A DNA stretch of 44,757 bases, filler included, from Jimgerdemannia flammicorona (lineage: Eukaryota), in NCBI GenBank assembly GCA_003990765.1. It is 2 parts of 2 records of this genome, joined end to end, with 100 filler letters (N's around TTAATTAATTAA, not from the genome) between each part and the next. Parts side by side here need not be neighbours in the genome. Positions count along the whole stretch, not along the records: positions 1 to 22,329 come from RBNJ01001296.1; 1 more part is not named here. The stretch is one strand, 5' to 3'. Positions 11,046 through 37,512 of the stretch are shown here, piece after piece (position 1 is the stretch's first letter; every line of letters starts with the position of its first letter). The notes beneath the pieces are model-generated. The model did no database searches and had not been told where the DNA came from. It saw nothing but the letters and a program-made list of their open reading frames with translations. Made by a program: the position numbers and the translations under genes.

Positions 11046-12194
11046 TTTTTTTTTTTTTTTTTTTTTATAGTCACAAGGACTTCCAAACTGTCTATGATGT
11101 ACTAATACAAATGAGCTCCTCACCCAATCCCACTCAGAAACTCCTTCTCTCTTACACTATTTCTCCAAAACATCACTGATCCCCTTGCTACCCCAATCCT
11201 CTCCTTATTCTTCCTACAGATTGTCTTCACCAATCACCTCTGATATCCCCCATCAGCACCCCTACCCCTCCACCACCCATTCAACATATCTGTCATCACA
11301 ACATATCTGTCATCAGCCACTCCCATCTAGCCACCCTCACTCCTAGTGCTCCAAACGAGTTGATCCAGATGGGATTCGAATCCCATCCAGATCAACCCAT
11401 CTGGATCGATTCGAATCAACCATTGTTTTTGATTTCCAAATTAGACAATTAAATGTTTACATTAATAACTTGATGAATAATCATTCAAATTTGATGATCT
11501 TGGTGTCATTTGAAAGCTGTTAATAAGGCCTTTTTAATGATATCAAGATCATTGAAATCGGATTATACATTGCCAAGATATTAAGGAAAATGTTCTTTTG
11601 ACATAATTTTCAAAATCAGTAAGTCAAATAATTTCTGAAATCAACAAGTCAGATGTTTTCCTTGATAACTCAGCAATGTATGATCCTATTTCAACAATCT
11701 TGATATCATTAGAAAGGCCTTATTAAAGGCTTTCAAATGACACTAAGATCATCAAATTTGGATAATTATTCATCAAGTTATTGATATAAACATTTAATTA
11801 TCTAATTTGGAAATCAAAACAATGGTTGATTTGAATCAATCTGGATGGAATTCAATCTGAATCAATCTGAATCCAATCCAGATTAAATTGACTTGTTAGG
11901 AGCACTACTTACTCCCAATATCAACTATTGACCCTCCTTAAATATATATAGCTAATGTTCTATAAGCCTGACTCAAATCACTAGTACTTATCTTAATATC
12001 AACCACTCATCTCCCAACCCCTTCCACCAACCTCCTCTGGAGGTCACCCCACCTCCCTCTTACCATCAATCCTAGTGGGTGTACCCTCAGTCACATCTTA
12101 ATCTTTCTCCAAAAGTTATCCATTATCTTATACTTCTCTAGCTAATATTTAGGACTCTATATCACTCCTCTCTTCTGCCTGATGTTTAGATACT
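11046..12194 (-). mobile_element. LINE-A family 3' fragment with poly(A) tail, interrupted by a MITE
   Basis: T tract 11046-11066 followed by atagtcacaaggact, the same 3' terminus as 28316 (atagtcacttggact). The distal part resembles 28790-28815. Confidence 0.7.
11344..11907. mobile_element. hAT-type MITE, family 1 (564 bp, near-palindromic)
   Basis: TIR TAGTGCTCC...GGAGCACTA, 8-bp TSD ctcactcc/cttactcc, long internal inverted arms. Homologous to 33020-33622. Confidence 0.9.
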
Positions 12195-15103: not shown

Positions 15104-16252
15104 CTATAGCACTCGCATCTGTCTACAGAATGAATTCTAAGTTTCAGTCTGGTCTTCTGAGGATGGGTGCTTGGGTCAATCTGGTCTTGAGTTCATTGAA
15201 GGTTTCTTAGTGCTCCTTGGTCCATTCGAATTTGGTCTCCTTCTTCAGTAGCTCATAGATAGGTGCTGTAATATTAGAGTATTCTTTGATGAATCTTCTG
15301 TAGTAGCTGGCCAGTCCAAGGAAGGCATGGACTTCTGTGGTTGTTCTGGGTCTTAGGTAGGCTGCAACAGCCTTGATCTTCATGGGGTCTGTGTGGATTC
15401 TGGTCTGGTTGATGAGATATCCTAGGTAGGCAATTTCTTGAGCTGCAAACTTGCATTTCTTGGGCTCAATATAGAGGCCATACTCCTTGAGCCTCTTGAG
15501 GGCTAGCTGTATGTAATTGACATGTTCCCATATAGTATTGCTGAAGATGATCATATCATTAACATAGATAAAGAGCCATTTTCCAATCTCATTACTGAAG
15601 ACTCTGTTCATCATTCACTGGAAACTTACTGGGGCATTATACATTCCAAATGGCATTCGCAGATAGATATAGGTGGTGTCAGGTATGATGAAGGCTGATT
15701 TCTCACTGATATCTTGAGTGAGACCAATCTGATGGAAGTCTGAGAATAGATCCAAGGTGGTGTAGTATTTGGCTTTGCTTCCAAGGGTGGTAAGGATTTC
15801 TTAAATATTCAGCAAGGACTGCCTATCCTTCTTGGTGATGGCATTGAGTTTCTTGTAGTCAATGCAGAGTCTTGGTGCAAACTCTCCAGGCTTGCTTCCT
15901 TTCTTCAGAGCAAGAATAATGGGTGAGGCCCAGGGACTGATAGCTTACTTGATGATTTTAGCTTCTTCCATTTCCTTGAGTTCTGCTCACAGCCACTCTC
16001 TGTAGATAGGTGGTATGGGTCTGGCTTTCTGATAGATGGGTTTGGTATCACTGGTATCAACTTTGTGGTAGTACTTGGATTCTTGATTGTGGATATCTCT
16101 AAAGTCTGTAGCAAGTACTTCTTTATTCTGATACAGGATCTTGAGAAGTTGTTCCTCCAGGGGAAAGTTTTCTCCAATAGTATATGTGTGCTTGTTCTGG
16201 TCCTTATCTTTCTTATACTCAAGTTCAGTAATCTTAGTGGTAGCATAGGCTC

Positions 16253-16670
16253 CTCTTCCAGTAGATCTAAAGCCTTATTCTCCTCTCTTGGTCTTGATGA
16301 GTTTGATGGCTTCTATGATTTTAGGCTTCTTGATTTCATGGATCAGCATCTAGTCAATCCTGTCATGCTTCTTGACTTCGAAGGGGGTGGTGTAGTTGTA
16401 ATTCCTGACTATGAGAAAGATCTTGCCAGTGTAATCAGAGTCAATTACTCCTCCTTCAACTGAGAATTTGCTTTTGGTCAGACTGCTTCTGGTCTTGATA
16501 ATTCTGGTATAGTTCTCTGGTAACTTGACTCCAATTTCAGTGCCAAGTAGGGTGGTGGTCTGTGGTTCAAGGGTAGCATCTTGAATGCTGGTAAGGTCTA
16601 TTCCTATGGCTCCTTCAGTCTTGTATTCTGGGATCTTGGCTTCAGGGTGAAACTTCTTGACCTTGAGGGT
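16253..16670 (-). pseudogene. dut: dUTPase domain in pol, copy 1
   Basis: GAIGIDL (motif 1), RSSL (2), GVIDSDYTG (3), DRID*ML (4), RGE*GFRSTG (5). Confidence 0.9.
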
Positions 16671-18870
16671 GATGTCTGATTCTTGTTCCTCCTCATTGTC
16701 ACTGTCAGCTTGAAGCTCTGAGGGCTGGTCATCTTCTTCAGCTTTCCTTTTTGCTTTGGCGGCTTTTTGTTCATGTTTCTGTTGGCAGATTTTCCTGACT
16801 TCACTGATACAGGACCAGTAGTCATTCAGGTGTTTGGAGCAGTACATCCTAGTACTATGGGGGCATCTTTCTTGAAGGGCATACCCATCGATGATCTTGT
16901 TATACTACTGCTCATCTGTAAGCTTAGGTGTCTTGCTCTTGTTCTTGTTCACCAAGTGCATGAAGACCTCTGTGTCCTCTTTATCTCCTTTCTCCATGTC
17001 TGGTAGGACTCCTTTGTGGACATTGATAGAGACTCATACCTTTCTTCCTCTATAGTTGATCTGCATCTTCTGGGCATTGAGGTTAATGATGGCCTTGGCC
17101 TTGTGAAGCCATTGGTTGCCAATAAGGATATCATAGTTGGTGGCACTTGTAACAATCATGTCTACTGGGATGGTAGCTCCTCCTATCTTGATGGGAACTT
17201 CTCGGATTTTGTCAAGGGGAGTAGCTTGTATACCATCTGCTGTGACATAGACTATCTTGGTGAACTCTTCAATGTCCCAATCTAGATAGTCAATTGTCTT
17301 CTTGCTCATAAGGCATCCTCCAGCATCAGTATCAATGATGGCATTAAAGATATAATCTTCAATCTGACATGGAGTATAGGCTGATGTCTTGTACTGATCT
17401 TCAGATTTTTCACCTGAGTTCTTGGATTCTTTCTGTGCATTGTGAGCTTCTACAATCTTGTACTCTTGATTCTTGGTAGTAGTTGCAAGTCCTACTCTCA
17501 ACTGCTGTCTGAAGGTAGAGACTTCAGCTAGCTATCCAAAAGTGGTATTGACCTTCTGTTCCTTGAGGTCCTTGTAGATATCATACTGGTGGATCTTTGT
17601 CTTGTGCAGCTTCTGTTCCTTCTTGCTTTCACTTTCTTCTGAGACTGGAGTAGTGTCTTCAATGATTTGGCAAGCAGCTTCGTCTAACTCCATATCTTGA
17701 TCAATCTCCTCAGGTTAGGTCTTACTTTGAATAGTGATAGCTGGGGTCTTCTTTGGTCTTCCAACTGGCTTACTGTTGCTCTTCTTGTCATAGGGCTTGG
17801 ACTGGGTTCTAGTACTTTCAGTAGTAGGGTAGAATTCGAGCTTCTCATAGTATTCTTCATCATCAGTGTCACTGATCTCCTTGATGACTACTGCATTGGT
17901 TTGTTCTCTGGTTCTGCTAGCATTGCTTGGTTGGGCTTTGTATCTTGTTTTGGTCATGCAACTCTTTGCATAGTGGTCTTCTTCTCTATATCTGAAGCAT
18001 GTAATATTACATTCTTCTGTAGTAGCTGTAAATCTCTGCACTGATCTCCTATTGGTGCTTCAGACTTCTCTAACAACATCACCAAGATATATAGTTATCT
18101 TGGCAAACTGCTTGGCAAGTTCCTCCACTGAGTCAGCTTTGGCTGTCTTGGGGGTAGGTGGGATTGGTTGTCTGTTTACGACTGTGACAGGTAAGATACT
18201 AGTTGGCTTTGATGGCTCCATCTTGATGTCAGTTATTTTCTCCATTGAGTGTTTGGCAGGGTGTCTGGCAGTCTAATATCTCTGTACAAAGACCACTTTT
18301 TGATCAAGGGTCAGTATAGCTAGGGTAGACCAGATTGCTAGGGTAATTTCAGAGTGAACTCCTTTGAGGAAGGTTGAATCCGCTATTTGTTCCTTGAGGT
18401 GGTCATCATAGCCAGCCAAGATAATCTGGTGGCAGATTCAGGTATAGAATGAGTTAGGATCTTCACTAAGTCTCTGGCAGATAGTATTGAGTTGATCCTT
18501 GAGAGCTTACTTGATCTCTTCAGTATAATATGTTGTTCTGAGGAAGACCTTCATGTTGGCAAGTTTGGCTGCACCAGTATCAGCAATGGTGGCTATATTG
18601 AACTTGTCTCTGGCAGGTCCTCTGAGGCTAACTGATAGAAGGGCCAATTGAGCATCTACACCAAGGGCTTGTACAGTGACGAATTATTCAAAGTCTTTAA
18701 TGAAGATCAGGATTGACTCTTCAGTAGTATATCCATAAAATGTGTGGGAGCACATTTCTATCTTGTCTTGAATTCTTGCAGAGGTGACTCTTATAGTCAG
18801 GGTAGTTGTTGTGGGGATTGTTCATTTTTTAGCTTAAAAGTGAGGGATTCATCTTGAATTACTAGCCAAT

Positions 18871-18878
18871 GGGTACCA
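18871..18878 (-). promoter_or_regulatory. tRNA-type PBS, possibly tRNA-Lys-like
   Basis: TGGTACCC here and TGGTGCCC in copy 2 (37502-37509), 3 nt after the LTR CA end. Both fit an ancestral TGGCGCCC. Confidence 0.6.
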
Positions 18879-18881
18879 AGT

Positions 18882-20378
18882 TGTCACATAGTAGTCACTG
18901 AGTCCTTCAAATATACCAAATTCTCTTCAAGGTATATCTCTTTAGACTAACTCAAGTTTGTTATAAGCAAGTTCTTATTGGAGTACCTTCCCAAGGTCTT
19001 ATAGTCCATCTTTAACTGTCTTGTTATCTCTTAGATTGCTTGCAAGGAAGTATGTATATTGCACTAAGAAGACTGACTTTATTTCAGAGGAAATAAGAGG
19101 AGTATTTATATAAAATATAATTCAATGATTGCTAAGATATAAAGCTAAATATAAATTCTAATAACTAAAACTACTAAGTTCCAGGGTTGGCACTGATGGT
19201 TGTATAGGTTCAGGATGCTGGCATTATTTAGTATCACATCAAAATGCTGGTGCTGGAACAATTTTGCGTCACCTCAGAATACCAGTACTGGTATTATCTA
19301 GTATAATAAAAAACTTAGAGTAGAAAGTTCAAGACCATGGGGGCTTCATCCTCATCATCATCATCACTGAAGGAGATGAGATCTGCGAACTCATCATGTA
19401 GGTCATGTGTTTCATGTATATCATGCAGGATGATGTTATCACCGATGATGTTATCATGTTTGGCTGTAGTGGGGAAATCGGGAACAAGGAGATCTGGAGC
19501 TCTCCAGTCTATGAGGTTCTCTTCCACAAAATAGGGAACAAATGTGGGGTCTTGGGGAGGTCTAACCTAGATGCTTGGGCCTTGGAATACTGAGATCAAT
19601 TCTTGTAGGAATTGATCTGGGTTGTCCTGAAGGATAGGATACCAGAAGTCTTCTACTTCTTCACTATTGAGAGTGATAGTGGACTGGGCTTCTGTAGCCA
19701 CCCTGGCTTCTAGTGCATTGATATGGCAGGATGATAGGTCTCTGAAATCTGAGACTCTAATATACTCCAAGTTGGGAATCGACTATGATGCATATCTGAA
19801 GATCTGATGGATCTTCTTAGCTGTCCTCATTTTGTATATATCCATGGGAGTGGCATCTTATAGCTCTTGGGTGCTGGTCTGTGGGAACTCCCAGCAGAGG
19901 AGGTTTCCTATTTCATACTCCTGCCATATTTGGAGGCATTTGGTAGTAATGGTGATCCTTGTTTCCATTTCGTAGTGGTAGAGAATAAAGTGATAAGGGT
20001 CTGTAGTACCCAGGTTGACACTAGGAGTCCTTCTTGAGTGGGTCCCCATGGCTCTTCTGATGTCTTGGAATATCCTTTCCTCAACTGAGATACCTTGGTG
20101 ATTCCTTGACCTTGAGGTTTGGTGGGCAGCAGGCATTTTATTTATGGTAAGTCTTTGAGCTATTTTGGGATTGGTGGTTCTTGTTGGTTGCTGCTACTGT
20201 AGTTTCTTGATCCTTCTTTTATATTCTTCAGGATGCTTGTGCTGTGGTCACAATGACTTACAGTTGGTCATCATTACTCACCTCATATGCCATATGATCT
20301 TCTTGTGCTCTGATCTAGTGGTTTGCAAGGAAAGGCTGTCTCCTATGCTGATGTCATCATTCTGGGGTCACTATTACA
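18882..20378 (-). repeat. 5' LTR of dUTPase-gypsy copy 1 (1497 bp)
   Basis: Minus strand TGTAAT...GTGACA. The same start follows the PPT at 27218. TATAAAAG at 20216-20223, TATAAATA at 19103-19110 and AATAAA at 19078-19083. Confidence 0.9.
19315..20136 (-). pseudogene. LTR-internal ORF, 273 codons, unknown function (copy 1)
   Basis: ORF-track pieces 19858-20136, 19567-19770 and 19315-19527 are one frame. Its three internal stops are Gln or Trp codons in copy 2. Confidence 0.85.
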
Positions 20379-22329: not shown

Positions 22330-22429
22330 NNNNNNNNNNNNNNNNNNNNNNNNNNNNNNNNNNNNNNNNNNNNTTAATTAATTAANNNNNNNNNNNNNNN
22401 NNNNNNNNNNNNNNNNNNNNNNNNNNNNN
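22330..22429. other. Artificial assembly spacer (44 N + TTAATTAATTAA + 44 N)
   Basis: Exactly 100 bp, with a central 12-mer that gives stops in all six frames. Confidence 0.95.
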
Positions 22430-22868
22430 TTTTTTAACAGACTCATAGTCCTGCGGATTTTTATTGGAAGAGAACCCAGACTATATAGGCCAAAACCCTC
22501 CCCCACCACCCACCAAACAATATCCCCCCATTAACCTAGGCTACTAAACTGTTCAGTAGTCCCACCGCTCCAGCTATGCCTGTCGAACACCGGCTACGTC
22601 GACCCCAACGATATAGACTAGACTTGTCTGCTCACCAGGGCTGGATCATTGTTTACATGCGAGAGCACACCTACACATCGGATCTAGCAGCACTGGGACT
22701 GAATAAAGAATAGCCCCCTGAACCCCAAAAGAAAGCCCAAGGCAAAGAAAAAACCCCCCAACCAACCAACAGAGAGCAAAGTAGATTCAAAGCGGGTGAG
22801 TAAAGGACTTACATGCAGCACCACCCTCAAAGGACTTACACATGGGCTAGGGCCTAAAAAGACCCCAC

Positions 22869-23021
22869 TCCCACTCCCCGAGCCTGCGGGCCTCGATCAC
22901 GTTGCCATGTCAGCTCCCGGTTCCAGTCGGGTACTGCCAAATGAGGAAGGTCCCACTCCCCAAGCCTGCGGGCCTCGATCGCATTGCTGCGTCAGCTCCC
23001 AGTTCCAGTTGGGTATAGCCA
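22869..23021. repeat. Two-copy ~71-bp GC-rich direct repeat (period 82) in the LINE-B 3' region
   Basis: tcccactcccc.agcctgcgggcctcgatc...gtcagctccc.gttccagt.gggta starts at 22869 and again at 22951. Confidence 0.9.
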
Positions 23022-23629
23022 GGATGCTGGCCCCTGCACCACCCCACCCCCCACCAGCCAATCGAAAGGCCCCACCGAAATATTATCTGCCCTAGCCCCG
23101 ATGACCGCCCCCAGCCTGGCACCCCACTGGTTCACCGTCATCGCCCTTCCTCCTATCTGTGACAGCCATCTCCCCTCCCATCCCGACATCACCCTAAAAA
23201 CAGTCACCTACACCAGAACCACGCTTGCCGGGAAGCTCGCCAAAGCCAGAGGGCCCCACCACAGGCACCGAGGACCTGCAGGTAACCTATACTGAGCACT
23301 TGACACCCAAGGTCAGCCAACTCCCTACATAGCCCGAGACACACCGAGACAACTCCTTGTTGGCGATGGCAAAAGGAAGAAGGTGCCACACCAAAATGGG
23401 TACACCCCAGACACAGCCGAGAGCACCAGAATCCACGAAAAAGTGGAGAAGACACCGATCCGACACTGATAAAGGGGCAACTCATCACTATTGCCTCCCT
23501 CCCACTGCTCTGAAACAGGTACAGCAAACCAACCTGAGGTAGAGGGGGTAATAATTGTGGAAAGTGGACTCGGAAGGTTGCCTACCAAACCATTGTGACC
23601 GGTAAGGTAGCAGAGAAAGGGGCACTGCC

Positions 23630-24918
23630 CCACCTTCCTCCTCACTCCACAATCCACTCCATCTCTCCTTCAGCGCTCCAAGAATGTCCTGTACACTATG
23701 CACCAGTACACCATCAGAGTCCAAGACCCCTTCCCACCGTTGCTGGACCTGCCTCGCCCTAAGGGCCCTTGAAAGAAGCTTGGAAGGCCTCTCTCCTTCC
23801 TCCAAATCCTGCCAACGAAGCCGTGCTGCCAAGCTTTGTACCCTTGCCTCTTCTTCCTCCCGCAGCACCTGTTGAAGTTCCCCAACCTCCATATTCGCCC
23901 TCAGTAATCTCCAATCTTCTTCTCCCTCCAACATTGTCAGCCATGCCCACTCCTCCAGGAGCCTCATCAATCGAGCAGAGGCCCAGTGCACCTTTTGTTT
24001 TTGCTGCTTCCCTGCCTCCTTGCCAGCCTTCTTCCAGTAAATTCTGGCCATTTCCTTCATCCTTATCCACCGAGTCCCAACTGCAGCCCCTTCCTGCCTC
24101 CAGGTCTCCACCCTCAGCTGAATGTCTTTAGCCCACTCATCCCACCGGGTCTTGTCATCTAACAAAGAGAAATTGAGGTGCCAATGTCCAGGCCCATCCC
24201 CACTTCCCCCAAAGCACTCCTGTCCCAAAAGCCCCCAGTGATCCGACCATGGACACCATTCAACCTCCAATAATTTCCAGACATCTAGTCCCCAGCAGCA
24301 AGCCATCAAAATCCAATCAATTCTAGTCCCCAGACCCCCTGCCCAATGTGTATAGACCCTCCTACTCCCCCAGCACTCCCTTCCAGCATCCAATAGTGCA
24401 CTCAGCCTCTCGACTTCCTCCCATGCCACCAGCCCTCCACTCCTGCCCTCAGCTCCACGTCCTCCATCTGATCTATCCATCAGTATATCCCTAACCATAT
24501 TGAAATCTCCCCCTAGCACATCCACCCCGGCCTCCACAAGTAATCCACTCTCCTATAGTCCCTTCACCCAATCGACCCTCTCACCCCGTACTATAGGGCA
24601 GTAGCAAGAACCAACCATAACTGGTTCTCAGCCTACCCGAATCCACTCTCCCCAGATCAGTCTCTCCCCCTAGCACTGCACATTCTGTATCTCCCCTCTG
24701 CCTCTCCTAACCAAAATCCCAACCTTGCCCCTCCAGATCACTGCACCTCCCCATTCCTTCGTCCATTCTAACCTATCAGAGTCATCTTCGCACCGGACAT
24801 CCTGCAAGAGGAAGAGATTGGCCTCCAATCCCTTCATCCAAGTAAAAATGTTCCTACGTCGAGAAGCGCCCCGTAACCCATTCACATTCAAAGAGAAAAT
24901 GTTTGTTGTACTGTTCAT
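23630..24918 (-). pseudogene. LINE-B ORF2 endonuclease plus linker, truncated before RT
   Basis: APE-endonuclease motifs as listed for LINE-B; a few TAG stops. Confidence 0.85.
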
Positions 24919-24951
24919 ATTGATGATATATGTGATGTCGTCAATCTGCCT

Positions 24952-26977
24952 CTACTGCTCCATGCTCATCTTCTCCTGTGCTCTGTCCAAATTATGTTCT
25001 GCAGCCACCTCCTCCTCTTCAGCCCTCTGAGCCTCCAATCCAGCCAGTAGTTCATTCATCTTGCCATCGGCCTTCTCCTCAAACTCCTCTTGGTATTCGA
25101 TGCATGCTTCCTGCCAGAGCTGTAGTCCATGTCGCTTGTTCCAGCAGTATTCAGCCCTTTCTCCAGCAACAACTGCCATCTCCTCCTCCCTCTCCTTATC
25201 CACCTCATATCCTTCCTCCTCCAGGTACACCGCAAGAATTTCCGCCTTCAATGCCTTCATCACGCCATCCCTCTGTAGTATTCCTGCCCAGTGCTCATCA
25301 CTCATCACTCACAAGTCCACTTCCCCCAACTCTTCCGCTGCCAGGATATTCATCATCTGGCACATCCAAAGCAAGTTCCCCACCTCTTTCCCCCCCGGAG
25401 TCGCCGGCCTCCCTCCATCCAACATTGTGGTGTCAGCTCCAGTACTTGCAGACTCATCCCATACTTCCGGGACATCCACCAGTTCCTCCTCGCCATCCGC
25501 CTCCACCTGTCCCCCATACGCCACCTCTGGAACTCCGAATTGCACCCGCTGGGCCCCTCGCATTGGTACATCTTCCACCACCCTATTCCAGGAAGCCGGG
25601 CCATGCCTGATGAGAGGGGTAGGGGTAGGGGAACCCACCCAGTCCTCCTCCCACACCTCCAGTGTACCATCCACATACAGGTCCTTCCCCACCTTCTTCT
25701 TGTCCTCCCCCACCTCCTTCTTGTCCATCCCCTCCCCCTCACCAGCCCAGACACTCGCTCCAGCTCCCCCTGTGCCCTTCACCTTGCTCGCCTCCCCCAG
25801 TGGTCCACTATCCAGCTTGGCCAACAACTCCTTCTGCCTCTTACACCTCTGAGCCCTTTCCCACTGCTCCTTGGTCACCTGAATCCACTTTCCATCCATT
25901 ACCTCCAAGTGTGTTGTCTCTTCAAAAGCCTCCCAAGCCTTCGCTCGCCTCTCCACAGCCCCCCCAAGCTCTTCGAGTGCTTCCAGTAAATCCTCCTCCT
26001 CTTCCTCACTCCCCTTCACCCTTATCACCTTACACAGGATCACTCCCCAGACCATCACTGAAGGCCAATCCCTTGCCTTCCCAGTGGCTTCCTTCCCAGC
26101 CAGCTGAATCCTCACATCTACGTCACCAGTCCTGAGCAAGGTCCCCTCCCAGACCCTGAACCCGATATTGACCACCTCACCATATTCTGCCATAAAATCC
26201 TCAACCCTCTTCCTTGTCTCCATTGCTGTCACCATTGGCACTCCCTTCACCAGCAGTTGGACCACCCTGGGGTCCCACTTCAAGCACCACGTCATAGGAA
26301 CACATACCTCCCCAACCACCAATCCAACCTTCAGCGCCTCCTCCAGTGGTGCCGCCTCCTCAAAGCCCACCTCCACTCCTTTCAGTCCCTTCAAAAACTT
26401 CACAGATGCTGCACCTGCCACCTGCTTAGCGATGAGCCCTAGCACCATTTTTGCCATCACCGCCAGGCCCCGGAAGCATAGTGTGACTGTGAATGCCGAA
26501 ATCGATTTCTTGAGTAACGGAGCCACCGCCAGACCCATTACACTATCTGCCAAGTCTCTTTGCCTTCTAAGCCTCAGCTGCTCAGCCTCGCCATCAGCCG
26601 TCACATCTGGATTTTTTTCCAGATCAACAGTCCCAACACCATCAGCAGTCACACCCCCCCCCAGCCACTACTCCCTCAGCTCCACTGCCCCCCCTTCCAA
26701 GGGCCGCACCCCCCGGCACCGTCTCCTTCCTGGTCCCCTTGCCCTTCTTCAGCCAGCCCTCCAGCCCCGATGCCTGCTGCCTCCCCTTCACCATCTCCGC
26801 AAAGCTTGCCCTCCTAGATCCTGATCCTCCACCATCTCCTCCACCCCTTCCACGTCCACCCGCCAGCAGGCCCCTCATACCTCCCCCCAGGCCTGGCCCC
26901 CTCCCCACCTGCTGCCAGTCGAAAGTACTAGGGCTGCTCTGCCCAGTACGCACCTCAGGTTGTCTGTCGGTTGCTAT
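24952..26977 (-). pseudogene. LINE-B ORF1 (putative nucleic-acid-binding protein)
   Basis: ORF pieces 26642-26953, 25309-26652 and 24952-25308. RG-rich N-terminus, SFAEMVK motif, RRM-like strands and an acidic coiled-coil end. Confidence 0.7.
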
Positions 26978-27059
26978 GTTGTTAGTCTCTTTTTGCTGAA
27001 AACATTGTTGAAAGTGCCTTCCAAAGGTTGTATAACCTGAATGGTACTGGAAAGAGGCG

Positions 27060-27218
27060 TATGTTCCTCAGGATGCTTGTACTGTAGTCACAATGACTCA
27101 CAGTTGGTCATCATTACTTATCTCATATGCTGTATAATCTTTCTGTGCTCCGATCTGGTGGTTTGCAAGGAAAGACTGTCTCCTGTGCTGATGTCATCAT
27201 TCTGAGATCACTATTACA
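27060..27218 (-). repeat. First 159 bp of the 3' LTR of copy 2 (rest displaced by LINE-B and the gap)
   Basis: Matches ~20220-20378 and ~38866-39024; directly follows the polypurine tract. Confidence 0.9.
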
Positions 27219-27514
27219 TCTTCCTCCTGAATAAGGATCTTCTCAAGTATTCTTATTCATTAGTCTAGTCCTGAAAAATTTACTGATCCCATAACCTCTG
27301 GTAAGGGGTCGAAAAGTGGTATTTATGGGCTGGCATTTTCCTTTTGTATTTTGGCATAATGGTGAAGGGTCGCTCCCTTCATATAAAGCAAGGGCCTGAT
27401 TCTGATCTTGACCAATCAGTTGATGGTTCAAACTCTTCTGGCTTCAAAAGTCTCATGGATGAGTAGTTGTCAGTGCTGTATCCTTTAGAGAATGGTCCAG
27501 ACAGATAGCCTGCT

Positions 27515-27847
27515 TAGTGCTCCCAATGAATCAAATCAAATCAAATTAAAGGTCCAATTCGATTTGAAGTTCGATTCAAACCTTAATTTTCAAAATGTAA
27601 TAACTCGATGAAAACTCATCTAAATTTAATGTATTTTAGCTTGTTAGATTCACCATATTAATGTAATTCTAACAAGCTAAAATATGTTAGATTTGGATGA
27701 GTTTACACTGAGTTATTGCATTTTGAAAATTAGGGTTCAAATCAGATCCTCAATTTGATTCAACTTTTGATTCGATTGAATTGATTTGAATTAAAAAATC
27801 CCCAATTCAATTTGATTCAAATTGATTCGACTCATTTGGGAGCACTA
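27515..27847. mobile_element. hAT-type MITE, family 2 (333 bp, near-palindromic)
   Basis: TIR TAGTGCTCCC...GGGAGCACTA and 8-bp TSD agcctgct/agtctgct. Interior differs from family 1. Confidence 0.9.
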
Positions 27848-28294
27848 AGTCTGCTGGTCATGGAACATGCTGTTATAATTCGCAGACTAGAACCTTGTGA
27901 GCAGTTATCATATTTTGCTTCTCTAGTATAGATTCATAGTACTTCTTGAGTCTGTTCTTATGTACCGTAGTAGACAGTATGGTCCCTGAGATTTTTCTAA
28001 GCCAGAAGGTAGTTTTCTTGATATCTTGCACATAGAAGAGTCCTTCCCATTTGGGCTCTAGTTTTCACAACTATGAGGCTTCTACTATATTTCAATATAG
28101 TAGAATCTTTTCTCTAATTTGGATGGGTTCTAGGGCCTTGTGATTCTTTTCCACATTATTCCTTGTCAGCGCTTGTGGCTTGATGATGTAATCTTCAACC
28201 TTCTTTCTGATTTGGTGTAGTCTCCAGATTTCTGCATTAATCTATCTCTAAGTTAGGTCTAGATTTGTAGCTGAGGTTCCATCAGAATCTTCTT

Positions 28295-30547
28295 TTTTTT
28301 TTTTTTTTTTTTTTTATAGTCACTTGGACTCCATCTTTATTACCAGTCTATGAATAAGTATACAATACCACCACCCACTATCCGATCCCCATAGGGGGGC
28401 CCCTCCCCACCTCTTTACATATAAAGACCACTCTCTCACCAACTACTCCAACTCTCCTACTACTTTGACCACAGATTTTCACCACTAAGCAGTACCTCCA
28501 ACCCCCCTACAGCCTCTAACCAAGCCACCAGCCTGTCAAGGTGTCCTCCACAAGGCACTGCCACTGTGATAACTGGTTCCCCAAGCTCTGTCACCTCTCC
28601 TCCTCAAATACAAATAGCCAGTGACTGGCCAGCCCAACCCAAATAGCCAATGCCCAGCCTAAGGTAATCCACTCCACCCCTATCCCTCCTATCAATTGAT
28701 CCCTCAGGTCCTCCCACCTCTCTCATACATCATCTCCCCTATGCCTCACCCCCAAGCGGTCCCCAATGGCCTACCAAAAGTCTCCCAACACCTCACACTC
28801 TCCTAGCCAATGTTCTGGCATCTGTACAAATCCCCCTTCCTACCCTACATTATGGCACTCCTCGCAGTCAAAGCAGCCCCCTATGACAAGGTGTCCTGAG
28901 CAGAAGTTAAGTATCACATTCCTCCTCAGTACACACTACCAGACCACCCAGTACTTTGGCAGCATCCATTTTTTTACTATAGTGCTCCAGGTCCAAACTC
29001 CATACCAGTCCCACTCCTCTCCAATTCCAACTCCTTGCCAACCACTAGGTCACAGATCCTGGCCTAGTCCCCTTTGGTATTCCACTCCATCACCAATGTT
29101 GAACTTAGGTAAAGGTATACTGCCCAGTAGAATACCATCTCATCTCCACATCGCTGGGTCCCAAGCCCTCTCCCCCTTATTCCCTTGCCAGCAAATACTA
29201 ATGCAGTGCACTCTCTCTGCTATCCCCTACCAGAAGCCTCTATATCACAATTGTGCAGTGTTCCGAAGCCCAACTAATGAAAGAAGATCACTAGTCGAGC
29301 CTCTTGGTGATGACCGCCTCTCCCAGACCTTCTGCAGCAGGGGAACCCAACCCCCTCCATACAACTCCACTGCCCTCTTCATGCCCTCAAGCAGTATAGT
29401 CATTTGGGGAAGTCCACCAGCCTAAGACCACCTCTCGCCACCAGTAGGGACAAAGTCTCCCAATCAATCTGACTCCGTCTGCCAGCCCAAATCCATCCCT
29501 TGGCCACCTTCACCAATCTCTTCACCACCCAGGCTGGGAAGTCTAGATGATAAGTCAAATACTACAGCTTCAGTAGCCAGTATACATTCAAAATCGAGAT
29601 CCTTCCTACTAGAGAGAAGTGTCTTCCCCCCCAACCCCACAGGTCCTCCTCCCAAATTCCAACCCTCTGTTCCCACCACAGCCTGGGCAGAACAGACCCA
29701 TAGACTGACAAATAGATGCCCAAGTACTGCACTATCTCTCCGGTAGGAATAATTGTTCCAATAACCTCTCCTCCCACTAGACTGTTACCCAGCACCATTG
29801 TTTTGTACTTGTGCCAATTCAGCTTCACCCCAGAGTACTCCTCATACTACTCCACTGTCTTCTTGAGCTCCTCAACATCAGCAATCACTCCCAAACCAAC
29901 CACCATATCATCTGCAAAGGCTCCAACTTTCCAGCCAACTCCATAGATAGAGAGTCTCACTATCCTCTACTGAATTCTGTCCATTAGAGATTCCAAGGAA
30001 AGAGTATACAAAATGGGGGACAGTGGGTCCCCCTGGGGCACCCCCCTACCCAGAGGGAATGCTACCCCTCTATGCCTATTATACATGAACACAGCCCTAC
30101 TTCCTTCCAGTAGGCTGATCATCGCTGACCGAAATGGAACTGGAACCCCAATTCTATCTAATACTTTCGCCAGCCAGACTCGCCACACCTAGTCATAAGC
30201 CTTCTCCTGGTCCAAGAAGACAAGACACCCATCCAGCCCACAGGCTCTAGCACCTTCAATAACTCCATGTACCCAGGCTGTGCTATCTCTAATAAGCCAA
30301 CCCCCTACGAAGCCCCTCTGCTCAATACCTATAATTTGCTGGGCTACCTTCTGTAGCCTTGCAACCACCACCTTAGTCACCAACTTTCTGTCCATGTCTA
30401 GCAATATTATCAGCTGCCAATTCTTCCAATCCTCTCGCCTTCCTTTGTTCTTATAAAGCAGCATCACCAGCCCAAGATCCTGCTCCCCCACCCATCTCCC
30501 TGACTACAATATAAAGTTACATAGTGCTGTCAACTCTCTCAACATCT
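28295..30547 (-). mobile_element. 5'-truncated LINE-A (RT and C-terminus) with poly(A) tail and 14-bp TSD
   Basis: RT motifs LDQEKAYD, RGVPQGDPLSPILY, AFADD and QYLGI. TSD atcagaatcttctt at 28281-28294 and 30548-30561. The host integrase frame rejoins across it. Confidence 0.95.
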
Positions 30548-31561
30548 ATCAGAATCTTCTTCTCCAAAGAGCAGCTCCCTTGGGGTAAAGTGTATACTCT
30601 GTGACCATATGTCTTATAGGACAGAGAGGGCAGTTGGGAGATAGTTATCCCAATTCTCATATGTCTCTGAGATCTTCGCTAGGATGTTCTTAAGGGTCTT
30701 ATTGGTTCTCTCTATCTGTCCATTTCCTTGAGGGTGGTACACAGTGGTCTTGATGTGCTGGATCTTATATTTCTGATACATTATCTCATAGAATTCATTG
30801 ATAAATTCCATGTCACAGTCTGTTGTGATTTGCTTTGGTGTCTTATAGTGGTAGATGATTTCTTAGTACAGGAAGTTAGCTATAGAGAGGGCATTGGCTT
30901 CTTGTAATACTCCTGTCTCTATCCATTTGGTGAAGAGGTCTATAATAACTATAATATAGCAGTTTCCTGATAGTGTTACTAGTAGTAGCCCAATGATATC
31001 TATTGTGATGTGGTGAAAGAGGATAGGCTCAATTCTTAATGATCTGGGTATCTGGTCTTATTGATCTTGTTTTTGTTTTTGGCACTTGTCACACTCTTTG
31101 ACAAATTGGTACAGGTCTTTTTCCATCTTGGACCACCACATGGTTCTTCTTGCCTTGTTGTATATATTGATTCTTCTTAGGTATCCTTGCTCATATACTT
31201 CCTTCATTACTTGATACTTCTTGTATTTGGGTATTACTAGCTTTTCTCCTTTTCTGAGTATAGTATTGTCTAGTTCAAACTGTTTCCAAGTCCAGTTGAT
31301 AATGGTAATTGTCCAGAGTTTGAGATAGTTGGGTATCTTCTGCTGCCCAAGGTAGCTGATTAATCTATAGTATAGCTCCTTATTCATGGTGAATGGTCTT
31401 ATTGAGAGTATTTCAGGGTGTCCTTAAGAGTGCATCAGTATTGGTATTAGTTCTTCCTGAGCAGTGCTTGATAGTACAGTCATACTCTTGCAGCCTATAG
31501 ATCTATCTGGCATATATTCCTTTGGGGTTCAGAGTGTGGAATAGCCAGACAAGAGCAGAAT

Positions 31562-32930
31562 AACAGACTGCCCCTTTCTCCACTACTTTACAGGTCACAA
31601 TGATTTGGTAGGCCATGGGCAATATGGGCAACACAGGCAATATAGACAATACAGACAATATGGGTAAGATAGGTAAGATGGACAAGATGGTAAGATGGCA
31701 AGATAGGCAACATGGGCAAGATGGGTAGATGGCAAGACAGGTGATATGGGCAAAATAGGTAATATAGGCAATACAGGCAATATAGGCAATATGGGCAATA
31801 CAGACAACATGGGCAACATGGGCAGGCAAGATGGGCAAGACAGGCAAGATAGGCAAGACAGGCAAGATGCAAGACAGGTGATATAGGCAAGATGGGTAAG
31901 ATGGACAAGATAGGCAAGATAGGTAAGATGGGCAAGATGAGCAAGATAAGCAAGACAGGCAAGATGGGTAAGATAGATAAGATGGGTAAGATAACAAGAT
32001 GGCAAGATGGGCAACATGGGCAAAATGGACAGATGGCAAGACAGGTGATATAGGCAAGATAGGCAAAATGGGCAAAACAGATAAAACAGGCAAAACAGAC
32101 AACATGGACAACATAGGCAATACAGGTGGGCAATACAGGCAACACAGGCAATATGGGCAACATGGGTGGGCAACACAGGCAACATAGGTAATATGAGCGG
32201 GCAATACAGACAATATGGGCAACATGGGCAACATGGGCAATATGGGCAATATGGGTAATATGGGCAATATGGGCAGGCAAGATGGAAGACAGGCAAGATG
32301 GCAAGATGGGCAACATTGGCAAGACAGACAGACAGTAAGACAGGTGACATAGGCAAGATGAGCAAAACAGGCAAAACAGGAAAAATGGGCAATACAGGCA
32401 ATATGGGCAACATGGGCAATACAGACAATATGGGCAATATGGGCAGGCAAGATAGGTAAGATGGGCAAGATGGGTAAGATGGGCAAGATGGGCAATACAG
32501 ACAAGATGGGCAAGACAGATAATATGGACAATACAAGCAATATGGGTGGGCAACATAGGTAACACAGGTAACATGGGCAATATGGGCAGACAAGATAGGC
32601 AAGATGGGCAAGATAGGCAAAATAGGCAAGACAGCAAGATAGCAATATGGGCAATATGGGCAGGCAAGATGGGCTAGATGGGCAAGACAGGAGACACTAA
32701 TAGGGGTAGGTCAAGTATACTAGATGCCAAGTACTTGAGGTGGTTGGGGCTTACAACCTATACCCACTGAGTGGGATAGGCTGGGTAAGAGGATCTAGTT
32801 ACTTAGGCAGTAAGGTCACAACTCACACCCTAAAGATGCAAGGCTGGGAGTAGGTTGAGATTAGGGTAGAATGAGACTACTGATGTTATATGAGGATATG
32901 TGGCATGTTATAGATAGTTAATAAATGAGG
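31562..32930. mobile_element. Non-coding TSD-flanked cassette (45-bp module + 9-bp minisatellite + structured tail) in the RNase H of copy 2
   Basis: TSD caagagcagaat at 31550-31561 and 32931-32942. RNase H reads TDHSAL/VWLF across it. Confidence 0.8.
31615..32689. repeat. ~1.07-kb minisatellite, 9-bp unit A(T/C)(G/A)GGCAA(G/T/C)
   Basis: Units atgggcaag, acaggcaat and ataggcaag fit decay of ACGGGCAAN. Confidence 0.95.
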
Positions 32931-33019
32931 CAAGAGCAGAATGGTCTGTTTAAATGGTAAAGTGTTTTCTGGCTAGATAGTAGTGGAACTTATCTACTGT
33001 CCAAACTACTGCTAAGCAT

Positions 33020-33622
33020 TAGTGCTCCTAACGAGTCAATTTAATCCGGATTGATTTGGATTGAATCCCATCCGAATCAACTTGGATGGGATTCGAATCC
33101 CATCCAGATCAACTCGGATGGGATTCGAATCAACCATTGTTTTGATTTCCAAATTAGATAATTAAATGTTTACATCAATAACTCAATGAATAATCATCAA
33201 AATTTGATGATCTTGGTGTCATTTGAAAGCCCCTAATAAGGCCTATCTAATGATACCAAGAACATTGAAATCCGATCATGCGTTGCTGAGTTATGAAGGA
33301 AACTGTCTGAATTGCCGATTTTGGAAATTCTTCGATTTGCCAATTTTGAAAATTTCGTCAAATAGAACGTTTTCCTTAATATCTCGGCAACGTGTAATCC
33401 GATTTTAATGTTCTTGATATCATTAGAAAGGCCTTATTAAGGGCTTTCAAATGATACCAAGATCATCAAATTTGGATGATTATTCATCGAGTTATTGATG
33501 TAAACATTTAATTGTCCAATTTGGAAATCAAAACAATGGTTGATTCGAATCCAATCCGAATCGATCCGGATGGGATTCGAATCCATCCGAATCCCATCCG
33601 GATTGACTCATTCAGAGCACTA
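33020..33622. mobile_element. hAT-type MITE, family 1 (603 bp, young)
   Basis: TIR TAGTGCTC...GAGCACTA, perfect 8-bp TSD ctaagcat, many CpGs retained. Confidence 0.92.
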
Positions 33623-34889
33623 CTAAGCATTCAAGCTTGCATGACTCATAGTTCTGTTCTACTCTACAGGTACCTCGGCTTGCATAGGAGATATCATATT
33701 CATGTCCATCTTTCTTCTGAGCTAGGACTACTCTAAGTTCTATAGCACTCACATCTGTCTGCATGATGAATTCTAGGTTCCAGTCTGGTCTTCTGAGGAT
33801 AGGTGCTTGAGTCAACCTGGTCTTGAGTTCATTGAAGGTTTCTTGGTGCTCCTTGGTCCATTCGAATTTGGTTTCCTTCAGTAGCTCATAGATAGGTACT
33901 GCAATGTTGGAGTATCCTTTGATGAACCTTCTGTAGTAGCTGGCCAGTCCAAGGAAGGCATGGACTTCTGTGGTTGTTCTGGGTCTTGGGTAGACTGCAA
34001 CAGTCTCAATCTTTATGGGGTCTGTGTGGATTCTGGTCTGATTGATAAGGTGTCTTAGATAGGTGATTTCCTGGGCTACAAACTTACATTTCTTGGACTT
34101 GATGTAGAGACCATACTCCTTGAGCTTCTTGAGGGCTATCTGTATATGATTGATATGTTCCCATATAGTATTATTAAAGATGATCATATCATCAATATAG
34201 ACAAAGAGCTATTTTCAAATCTCATTGCTGAAGACTCTGTTCATCATTCACTGGAAACTTGCTAGGACATTGCACATTCCAAATAGTATTCACAGGTAGA
34301 TATAGGTGGTGTCAGGTATGATGAAGGCTGATTTCTCACTGATATCTTGAGTGAGACCAATCTGATGGAAGCCTGAGAACAGATCCAAGGTGATGTAGTA
34401 TTTGCCTTCATTTCCAAAAGTGATAAGAATTTCTTGAATATTTGGTAAGGGCTGCCTATCCTTCTTGGTGATGGCATTGAGCTTCCTGTAGTCAATGCAG
34501 AGTCTTGGTGCAAACTCTCCAGGCTTGCTTCCTTTCTTCAGGGTAAGGATAATAGGTGAAGCCCAGGGTCTGATAGCTTGCTTGATGATTCTGACTTCTT
34601 CTATTTCCTTGAGTTCTGCTTGCAGCCATTCTCTGTAGGCAGATAGTATGGGTCTGGCTTTCTGGTAGATGGGCTTGGTATCATTAGTGTCAACTTTGTG
34701 GTAGTACTTGGGTTCTTGATTGTGGATATTCTGAAAGTCTGTAGCAAGTACTCCTTCATTCTGATGCAGGATCTTGAGAAGTTGTTTCTCTAGGAGAAAG
34801 TTTTCTCCAATAATATATATGTACCTGTTCTGGTCCTTGTCTTTCTTGTACTCAAGTTTGGTAATCTTGGTGGCAGTATAGGCTCCTCT

Positions 34890-35300
34890 TCCAGTAGATC
34901 CAAAGCCTTGTTCTCCTCTCTTAGTCTTGATGAGTTTGATGGCTTCTATGATCTTGGGCTTTTTGATTTCATAGACCAGCATCTGGCCAATTCTATTATG
35001 CTTCTTGACTTCAAATCGGGTAGTGGGGTTGTAATTTCTGACTATGAGGAAGATTTCACCAGTATAATCAGGGTTAATTACTCCTCCTTCAACTGAGATT
35101 TCACTTTTGGCCAGACTGCTCCTGGTCTTGATAATCCCAACATAGTTCTCTGGCAGCTTGACTCCAATTCTAGTGCCAAGTAGGGTAGTGGTCTGTAGTT
35201 TGAGGGTAGCATCTTGAATACTGGCAAGGTCCATTCCTATGGCTCCTTTAGTCTTGTATTCTGGGATCTTGGCTTTAGGGTGAAACTTCTTAACCTTGAG
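34890..35300 (-). pseudogene. dut: dUTPase domain in pol, copy 2
   Basis: GAIGMDL, RSSLA, GGVINPDYTGEI, NRIGQML and RGEQGFGSTG, in frame with RT (ORF 34290-35234). Confidence 0.92.
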
Positions 35301-37512
35301 GGTGATGTCTGATTCTTGTTCCTCCTCATCATTACTGTCAGCTTGAAGCTCTGGGGGCTAGTCATCTTCTTCAGCTTTCCTTTTTATTTCAGTGGCTTCT
35401 TGCTCATATTTCTGTTGGCAGATTTTCCTGACTTCACTGATATAGGACCAGCAGTCATTCAGGTCTTCAGAGCAGTATATCCTAGTATCATGGGGGCATC
35501 TTTCTTGAGGGACATACCCATCAATGATCTTATTGTACCACTGCTCATCTGTGAGCTTGGGTGTCTTGTTCTTATTCTTATTCACCGAGTGCATGAAGAC
35601 CTCTGTATCTTCTTCATCTCCTTTCTCCATATCTGGTAGAACTCCTTTGTAGACATTGATAGAGACTCATACCTTTTTTCCTCTGTAGTTGATCTGCATC
35701 TTCTGGGCATTGAGGTCAATGATGGCCTTGGCCTTGTGAAGCCATTGGTTGCCAATGAGAATATCATAGTTGGTAGCACTTGTGACAATCACATCTACTG
35801 GGATGGTAGCTCCTCCTATCTTGATGGGGACTTCTCAGATTTTGCCAAAGGGGGTAGCTTGTGTACTATCTGCTGTGATATAGACCATCTTGATGGACTC
35901 TTCAATATCCCAGCCTAGGTAGTCAATTGCCTTCTTACTTATAAGGCATCCTCTAGCACTAGTATCAATGATGGTATCAAAGATACAGTCTTCAATCTGA
36001 CATAGAGTATAGGCTGATGTCTTGTACTGGTCTTCAGACTCTTCACCTGAGTTCTCAGATTCTTTCTGTACATTGTGAGCTTCTACAATCTTGTACTCTT
36101 GATTCTTGGTGGTAGTTGCCAGTCCTACTCTCAACTATTATCTAAAGGCAGAGACTTCAGTTAGCTATCCAAAAGTAGCATTGATCTTCTGTTCCTTGAG
36201 GTCCTTGTAGATATCATACTGGTGGATCTTGGTCTTGTACAGCTTCTGTTCCTTCTTACTTTTGCTTTCTCCTGAGACTGGAGTAGTGTCTTCAATGATT
36301 TGGCAGGCAGCTTCATTTAACTCTATGTCTTAATCAATCTCCTCAGGTTGGGTCTTGCTTTGAATAGTGATAGCTAGGGTCTTCTTTAGTCTTCCAACTG
36401 GCTTGCTGTTACTCTTCTTGTCATAGGGCTTGGACTGGGTTCTGGTACCTTCAGTAGCAGAGTAGAATTTGAGCTCCTCATAGTATTCTTCATCATCAGT
36501 GCCACCAATCTCCTTGATGACTACTGTATTGGTTTGTTCTCTGGTTCTGCTAGCATTGCTTGGTTGGGCTTTGTGTCTTGTTTCAGTCATGCAATTCTTT
36601 GCATAGTGGTCTTCTTCTCCACATCTGAAGCATGTGATATTGCATTCTTCTATAGCAGCTGCAAATCTCTGCACTGGTCTCCTGTTGGCACTTCAGACTT
36701 CTCTAACAATATCACTAAGGTGTGCAGTCATCTCAGCAAACTGCTTGGTGAGTTCCTCCACTGGGTCAGCTTTGGCTATCTTGGGGGTAGATGGGGTTAG
36801 TTGTCTGTTTACAACTGTAGCAGGTAAGATACTAGTTGGCTTTGATGACTCTATCTTGATGCCAGTTATTTTCTCCATTGAGTGTTCAGCAGGGTGTCTG
36901 ACAGTCCAATATCTCTGCAAAGATCACTTTCTGATCAAGGGTCAGTGCAGCTGGAGTAGACTGAATTACTAGGGCAATTTCAGGATAAACTCCTTTGAGG
37001 AAGGTTGAATCTGCTATTTGTTCCTTGAGGTGGTCATCATAGCCAGCCAAGACAATCTGATGGTAGATTTGGATATAAAATGAGTTGGGATCTTCACTAA
37101 GTCCCTGGTAGATAGTATTGAGTTGATCTTTGAGAGCTTGCTTGATCTCTTCAGTATAATATGTTATTCTGAGGAAGGTCTTCATGTTGACAAGTTTGGC
37201 TGCACTAGCATTAGTAATGGTAGCTGTATTGAACTTGTCTCTGGCAGATTCTCCGAGGCTGACTGGTAGAAGGGCCAATTGTATATCCACACCAAGGGCT
37301 CATATGGCAGCAAATTGTTCAAAGTCTTCAATGAAGATCAGGATTGACTCTTCAGTAGTATATTCATAGAATGTGGGGGGATGCATTTCCATCTTGTCTT
37401 GAATTCTTGCAGGGGTGACTCTTATAGTCAGAGCAGTTATTGTGGGGGTTGTTCATTTTTCAGCTTGAAAGTGAGAGATTTGTCTTGAATCACCAGCCAA
37501 TGGGCACCAAGT

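Follow-up and report, generated by a model that had tools for sequence, protein, structure and literature searches.

The extra genes of long terminal repeat (LTR) retrotransposons normally sit between the two LTRs. In plants such additional open reading frames (ORFs), or aORFs, are reportedly internal, preceding gag or following pol, in sense or antisense orientation. Among retroviruses, mouse mammary tumour virus (MMTV) has its superantigen gene sag in the U3 portion of a ∼1.3-kb LTR, and the literature calls it 'LTR-encoded'. Here we describe a comparable arrangement, proposed for two decayed copies (A and B) of a dUTPase-bearing Ty3/gypsy retrotransposon of Jimgerdemannia flammicorona (GenBank assembly GCA_003990765.1). 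Both lie in a window of 44,757 nt, filler included, a term that we use for the whole stretch of DNA analysed.

As with MMTV sag, a whole protein gene of ∼300 codons would lie in a long LTR, hence twice per provirus. MMTV is a retrovirus of vertebrates, whose Sag product is a type II membrane glycoprotein, whereas the element here is a fungal Ty3/gypsy retrotransposon without env. The nef gene of primate lentiviruses is likewise an accessory coding sequence reaching into U3, but it overlaps U3 only partly and is expressed from a spliced mRNA that the 5′ LTR drives; in the present case the proposed LTR takes in the complete ORF along with its own TATA box. An independently transcribed gene in both LTRs is a property of Cassandra, a terminal-repeat retrotransposon in miniature (TRIM) of plants, although that gene encodes a non-coding 5S RNA made by RNA polymerase III (Pol III), unlike the protein-coding, Pol II-type gene proposed for this fungus.

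Plant LTR retrotransposons carry aORFs of unknown function, some of them conserved (PMC7264820), and those of bdelloid rotifers likewise carry extra genes (PMC5408684). The former article, in its accessible part, uses neither 'in the LTR' nor 'within the LTR'; unlike plant aORFs, the gene described here appears to lie within the LTR itself. A dUTPase between protease and reverse transcriptase (RT) is described for fungal Ty3/gypsy elements, namely PosPlaTy3-5 of Postia placenta, elements of Phanerochaete and Tmt1 of Tuber (PMC2864245). These have the same backbone as ours (gag-CCHC, protease, dUTPase, RT, RNase H, integrase), and the accessible part of that article makes no mention of an ORF in the LTR. 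Among titles and opening parts of abstracts in the open-access literature we found no protein gene in the LTR of a non-retroviral LTR retrotransposon, only retroviral cases (MMTV; foamy-virus and other microRNAs) or unrelated work. LTR-encoded accessory genes are thus known from retroviruses, and the present Ty3/gypsy case, if the placement argued below is right, would be new as far as that literature shows. It would also matter for annotation, in which LTRs are routinely masked as non-coding.

An orphan gene under purifying selection

The window consists of two contigs (1–22329 and 22430–44757) joined by a segment, N44-TTAATTAATTAA-N44, that we take to be an artificial linker with stops in six frames. 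Copies A and B are therefore on different contigs, and order and distances across the linker are meaningless. In a self-comparison 20386–15104 (copy A) and 39031–33740 (copy B), both on the minus strand, proved to be one repeat, with 88.8% identity over 4306 nt and 88.3% over 901 nt. The features needed first are these:

22330–22429, no strand: artificial linker joining the two contigs
19315–20136, minus strand: copy A, pseudogene of the ORF in the proposed LTR, 273 codons and a terminal TAA, with internal stops at 93, 118 and 190; 80% identical to the intact relative P0003 (tblastn)
37947–38783, minus strand: copy B, pseudogene of the same ORF, 278 codons and a terminal TAA, with internal stops at 111, 165, 185 and 211 (frame reading)

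An initial annotation had reported this sense ORF, with its two lengths and a common start and stop, and its coordinates hold: the coding frame runs from 20136 to 19318 in copy A and from 38783 to 37950 in copy B, in each case followed by TAA. The three internal stops of copy A and the four of copy B had been attributed to Gln and Trp codons, correctly in seven cases out of seven, each TAA, TAG or TGA being a single transition from a CAA, CAG or TGG that is intact in the other copy. The other two sense frames hold 7–28 stops. Indels between the copies had been said to preserve the frame, and they do: all three in the ORF (15, 36 and 6 nt; net 15 nt) are multiples of three and fall in the acidic tail, whereas the five others, in the rest of the LTR or at its upstream edge, measure 1 nt each.

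The manner of decay is also visible. Copies A and B differ by 574 transitions and 23 transversions, spread evenly over coding and non-coding sequence (86–93% identity in every segment). An A follows on the 3′ side of the mutated C in 336 of the 574 cases (58.5%), as against 626 of 1880 conserved C (33%), and CpG is nearly absent. Near-exclusive C>T/G>A change with a preference for CpA (CpA>TpA) is the footprint of repeat-induced point mutation (RIP), a pattern typical of filamentous ascomycetes. Copies A and B are pseudogenes inactivated by such RIP-like, repeat-directed mutation, not products of the slow decay of a non-gene.

Intact relatives of the ORF exist. A word-indexed protein search of public metagenome data gave six (161–271 aa) at E≤0.01 among 244 candidates. 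Two of these, 247 and 271 aa long, span 92% or more of the query; the longer (P0004) agrees with the ORF of copies A and B at both termini, MPAA.QTSRSRNHQG at the start and LNFLL at the end. The six clusters at 90% identity comprise 16 sequences, on contigs of 540–2375 nt. A profile search run exhaustively over 1,835,955,588 cluster representatives yielded five family members, down to 31% identity with P0004. Overall the intact relatives are 214–342 aa long with 31–80% identity, and across this range the motifs HQIFRHAPWxIPN, WNPxLQDNPDQ, FxGPP and PYFxxxxxIxWR are retained. At five of the seven stop positions they have Q or W; at A93 and A190 some have other residues. The relatives carry no taxon label, which leaves a proposed likeness of the protein core to proteins of Glomeromycotina unsupported, and the mutational footprint suggests a filamentous ascomycete.

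At the DNA level a scan of metagenome contigs gave 301 pattern matches, which reduced to two loci. One, L001, is a contig of 1345 nt with an intact frame of 323 codons, ∼55% identical in protein, and is the only relative outside the window known as DNA. The other, L002, proved spurious (30% identity over 78 residues, with stops all around), and none of 44 pattern matches among viral contigs was related to the ORF. By the method of Nei and Gojobori (NG86), dN/dS against L001 is 0.17 for copy A and 0.16 for copy B (pN 0.26–0.30, pS 0.69–0.72), values that are approximate since dS is saturated but that agree with the expectation of dN/dS below 1 in the initial annotation. Between A and B the ratio is 0.34 and says little, because these copies differ almost solely by transitions.

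The stops in both copies might suggest a chance open frame in AT-rich repeat DNA rather than a gene. Such a reading would have to explain the intact relatives with conserved motifs down to 31% identity, the dN/dS of about 0.17, the frame-preserving indels and the many stops of the other sense frames; the relatives and the dN/dS refute it, and we give it practically no weight. The ORF is a genuine gene of a small orphan family, under purifying selection across diverged subfamilies.

The element and the proposed limits of its LTR

The repeat that carries the ORF was characterized by a Pfam scan of 25 stop-free frames and by tblastn mapping with related polyproteins. Its parts are as follows:

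18882–20378, minus strand: copy A, proposed 5′ LTR, 1497 nt, TGTAAT...GTGACA (onset of A/B homology, with differing flanks; CA and PBS-like TGG at its end)
37513–39022, minus strand: copy B, proposed 5′ LTR, 1510 nt, first TG mutated to TA (homology to copy A)
18861–18878, minus strand: copy A, site resembling a primer-binding site (PBS), TGGTACCCATTGG..., 3 nt past the CA of the LTR; kept between A and B apart from transitions
37492–37509, minus strand: copy B, PBS-like site, with the gag ATG at 37392
15104–18881, minus strand: copy A, internal region with gag-CCHC, protease, dUTPase, RT and part of RNase H, then degraded (Pfam, tblastn with polyproteins)
27219–37512, minus strand: copy B, internal region up to the polypurine tract, with nested insertions (Pfam, tblastn)
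27219–27228, minus strand: polypurine tract AGGAGGAAGA, abutting TGTAAT at 27218
27060–27218, minus strand: stub of a 3′ LTR, first 159 nt only, 91% identical to the 5′ LTR of copy B and 88.7% to that of copy A; breaks inside the TATAAAAG box
22430–27059, minus strand: GC-rich insertion resembling a long interspersed nuclear element (LINE), cutting the 3′ LTR, with an A-run at the contig end (weak Exo_endo_phos matches, composition)

On the minus strand the Pfam domains follow one another as zf-CCHC, RVP_2/Asp_protease, dUTPase, RVT_1, RT_RNaseH_2, Integrase_H2C2 and a sub-threshold rve_3, and tblastn agrees. This is the Ty3/gypsy (Metaviridae) order, gag(CCHC)-protease-RT-RNase H-integrase, with the integrase after RT; copies A and B are a dUTPase-bearing Ty3/gypsy retrotransposon. 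The closest polyprotein in databases is only 43% identical. In copy B the gag frame, opening at its ATG, joins the 36889–37299 frame save for one TGA, the polyprotein match begins at 37377, RT/RNase H extend to 33615 and the integrase occupies 31562–30557. Copy A is interrupted in RNase H at ∼15102, and its integrase survives only as degraded traces at 15007–14398 (tblastn). Farther on, 12230–11904 matches 28895–28570 at 82–85% in 120-nt windows under purine/pyrimidine coding, a match missed by ordinary BLAST, so copy A keeps a further, heavily mutated remnant of the 3′ part of the element.

The limits of the LTR bear directly on where the gene lies. TGTAAT opens copy A at 20378 and the 3′ stub at 27218, and reads TATAAT in copy B, whose 5′ end is at 39022. 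The polypurine tract stands directly before the 3′ LTR; the same 159 nt following it, together with the onset of A/B homology at TGTAAT, fix the LTR start, as the initial annotation had it. The proposed 3′ ends are ...GTGACA, at 18882 in A and 37513 in B, giving the repeat TG...CA termini. ACT-TGG follows, so that TGG stands 3 nt beyond CA in both copies, with the gag ATG another 117 nt on. The annotation had fixed the end by this CA-act-TGG junction, which is present as sequence in both copies, but the site can be called only PBS-like. By the mechanics of reverse transcription, all sequence between the 5′ end of an element and its PBS is LTR, and all things considered we hold a long LTR of ∼1.5 kb containing the ORF to be very probable.

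Several observations weigh against this placement. No tRNA gene was found in the window to which the PBS-like site might correspond. Of the 3′ LTR nothing beyond 159 nt (27218–27060) is visible in the window, so there is no second full LTR of one element for comparison, no element in the window shows both of its ends, and the repetition of the ORF at both ends of one element is not directly seen. A purine/pyrimidine-coded, hence transition-blind, scan of the window found no third LTR copy. Finally, the first bases of L001 are GAATATAAAAG, which puts its start 7 nt ahead of the stub's break (27060–27066), just as a short-LTR boundary would predict; coincidence, an assembly-graph boundary or an insertion hotspot may account for this.

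The short 3′ copy and the start of L001 would also fit an LTR of only ∼157–160 nt (TGTAAT...GGAACA), for which 27218–27060 would be a complete 3′ LTR and the ORF an internal ORF0 before gag. The last bases of the sole 3′ copy can indeed be read as ...CA, and a contig starting within 7 nt of the boundary is how assembly graphs behave at repeat edges. Yet in neither A nor B is position 159 followed by TGG or anything PBS-like, 157 nt would make an LTR without TATA or AATAAA of its own, and the conserved AATAAA island described below, then internal, would be harmful in genomic RNA. TACGC follows the stub whereas ATTAT precedes the 5′ end of copy B, so that, should the stub belong to B, a target-site duplication is lacking. 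The break itself, moreover, falls within TATA|AAAG, where the T-rich bottom strand is a typical target of LINE endonucleases, and adjoins the LINE-like element. That element shows weak Exo_endo_phos matches at 24951–24673 and 24552–23491 (E 0.007 and 0.03) and closes with ...AATAAA...TTAAAAAA precisely where contig 2 ends (22430). The rest of the 3′ LTR is missing because of this insertion, in whose A-tail the assembly stops. We consider the short LTR very improbable.

A second fragment, at 29565–30503 inside copy B, has LINE-type RVT_1 matches. It reads on the minus strand, as does 22430–27059 with its 51–58% GC and strongly negative GC skew, and the two are probably copies of one non-LTR retrotransposon family spared the RIP-like decay of the gypsy copies.

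Putative promoters, predicted transcripts and a possible role for the protein

The ORF is flanked by motifs that could serve its expression:

20216–20223, minus strand: copy A, TATAAAAG, 87 nt ahead of the ORF's ATG; L001 has an identical GAATATAAAAG
38862–38869, minus strand: copy B, TATAAAAA, upstream of the ORF (sequence reading, comparison)
19078–19110, minus strand: copy A, TATAAATA (19110–19103) and AATAAA (19083–19078), downstream of the ORF; conserved in L001
37710–37742, minus strand: copy B, TATAAATA and AATAAA, downstream of the ORF; conserved in L001

A TATA box ahead of the ATG, distinct from the TATA/AATAAA pair after the ORF, had been noted in the initial annotation and is confirmed. 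Conservation against L001 is confined to islands: GAATATAAAAG at the upstream box, which is identical in copy A, and downstream 16 nt at TATAAATA plus AATAAA, the remaining flanks of the ORF being unalignable. The L001-derived 16-mer of the downstream island has two matches in the window, only at the two LTRs, against 0.03 expected. Promoter and polyadenylation signals of the repeat (TATAAATA and AATAAA, 27 nt apart) are thus seen at the level of motifs. No ATG intervenes between TATAAAAG and the start of the ORF in A, B or L001, and the start context is A-rich, whereas several ATGs are present within the initial 159 nt of the LTR. The bZIP-type motif TGAGTCA in those 159 nt is not enriched (13 matches, 9.3 expected) and was dropped as evidence.

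The conserved promoter/terminator island downstream of the ORF would place the ORF in U3, upstream of the element's own promoter and terminator (TATAAATA, with AATAAA 27 nt on). We consider it probable that the ORF is a gene of the ∼1.5-kb 5′ LTR of this element, with its own TATAAAAG promoter, and that it serves the element's propagation. The conserved TATAAAAG would drive an mRNA of ∼1.1 kb ending at the AATAAA of the LTR, for which either LTR, or a solo LTR, could be the source, so that each LTR, solo LTRs included, would be a self-contained gene cassette. Genomic RNA would start separately, from the TATAAATA promoter, in a two-promoter model. Translation of the ORF from genomic RNA is unlikely because of the several ATGs in the first 159 nt and because the ORF would lie >6 kb into that RNA. 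As to the role, inserted retrotransposon copies drift neutrally, so that purifying selection between subfamilies implies descent solely from elements whose ORF was intact, and the protein should accordingly serve the element's own propagation.

Three points tell against parts of this proposal. The assignment of the ORF to U3 rather than R is drawn from motifs; the relatives lie on short contigs (540–2375 nt), and family context comes from L001 alone; and any idea of function draws on charge distribution and low-confidence secondary structure. Twelve sequencing runs share words with the window, mostly soil metagenomes (best share 0.25), with no RNA run among them.

The first point leaves room for the same LTR with a single promoter, TATAAAAG, driving genomic RNA. 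The ORF would then lie in an R of ∼1.1 kb, and TGTATAAATA...AATAAA would be a bipartite fungal polyadenylation signal at which most transcripts stop early, giving the 1.1-kb ORF mRNA, while read-through gives genomic RNA; the ORF mRNA would not be independent. Both islands are conserved in L001, as this scheme also expects, and the first ATG after TATAAAAG is that of the ORF. The second TATA-like motif stands only 27 nt before AATAAA, a spacing that also fits an efficiency and a positioning element of the yeast type. On the other side, we know of no R of ∼1.1 kb, and little genomic RNA would get past a strong terminator lying 1.1 kb from the cap. Initiation at or just past AATAAA, directed by a suitably placed TATA box, is besides a classic way of keeping the signal out of the 5′ end, and fits two promoters well. 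We regard a single promoter as unlikely.

The ORF might instead be a captured host gene riding in the LTR, or its intact relatives might be host genes, with no role in the life cycle of the element. LTR retrotransposons do transduce host sequences, and genomic context is missing for four of the five family representatives. The L001 subfamily, however, at ∼55% protein identity, keeps the order TATAAAAG, ORF, TATAAATA/AATAAA, so the association of ORF and LTR is old, and the frame has stayed under selection. The family is also without a known domain, and no longer or fused, host-like form of the protein was found among 2424 candidates. Capture without a role seems improbable to us.

Returning to the two-promoter gene in the LTR, its fullest form would make each LTR a complete Pol II cassette (promoter, ORF of 270–340 codons, terminator), each element thus carrying two genes for a trans-acting factor and every solo LTR a working copy, the product being an orphan-fold protein needed for spread. 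We put this forward tentatively, as somewhat less than an even prospect. Under it the protein might switch on the LTR or blunt RIP, methylation or RNA silencing. A selected protein gene in the LTR would, if real, mean a gene dosage of two copies per element, and solo LTRs, usually counted as dead remnants, could remain coding.

Full-length members of the family are acidic (pI 4.5–4.9), with first 60 residues that are basic (up to +8) and a strongly acidic last third, in which hydrophobic-acidic patches such as DLISF are followed by D/E runs. AlphaFold (AF2) models show helices in the first two thirds and then disorder, at low confidence (mean pLDDT 34.2 with 11 sequences, 43.5 with 20), and the C-terminal acidic tail is probably disordered. 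Structure prediction and structural search, which the initial annotation had named as a route to function, yielded no confident fold: VIA-align against 48,161 PDB chains gave a best Z of 3.9 and no chain with Z≥5, a result that is uninformative and no evidence of a new fold, and the ESM Atlas gave a best feature score of 0.83 with TM≤0.33, within the range of chance. By sequence, Pfam assigned no family at threshold to 22 family sequences (best E 0.026–0.086, to unrelated families) and PDB gave no match at E≤1; neither search showed homology to Sag or Nef. An origin from Gag, as for Ty1 p22, was tried by profile comparison with the closest polyprotein (1499 aa) and rejected (probability 0.2%).

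Because the basic N-terminus and acidic tail resemble viral transactivators, one may guess that the protein is a nuclear factor regulating the LTR or host silencing in trans, a guess that we hold to be doubtful. The likeliest functional model is Tas (Bel1) of foamy viruses, an accessory regulator of ∼300 aa with an acidic C-terminal part and its own promoter, distinct from that for genomic RNA. The position of its gene differs, between env and the 3′ LTR rather than within an LTR, and no similarity of sequence or fold to it is shown (pLDDT 34–44, best Z 3.9). Since the family matches no known domain and its fold is not predictable, a function discovered for it would be new, and the protein is a candidate for a new kind of transposon–host interaction factor in fungi with strong repeat defences.

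Other features of the window

Two further repeats lie within copy B. Between RNase H and integrase, at 31500–32700, is a minisatellite of ∼1.2 kb with a period of 9 nt, in which all three minus-strand frames are open (344–397 aa). A unit of ∼500 nt at 33085–33587 matches 11368–11841, near the degraded end of copy A, in both orientations and is therefore itself palindromic; the pair may be a small element of the hairpin type.

Upstream of copy A, two similar motifs (ccagatggt...gagaccctaacc...) were noted by eye on the minus strand ∼1.75 kb apart, at ∼22300–22240 and 20560–20480; possibly they mark the two ends of a further degraded repeat that received copy A. Self-comparison also revealed an inverted repeat of ∼670 nt (2144–2805 versus 4304–3636, 79% identity) unrelated to the gypsy element. 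On the plus strand, 43268–44755 is a fragment of a host gene, that for the 75-kDa subunit of NADH:ubiquinone oxidoreductase, which runs off the end of the window and has Pfam matches to Molybdopterin, Fer4_Nqo3 and NADH-G_4Fe-4S_3.

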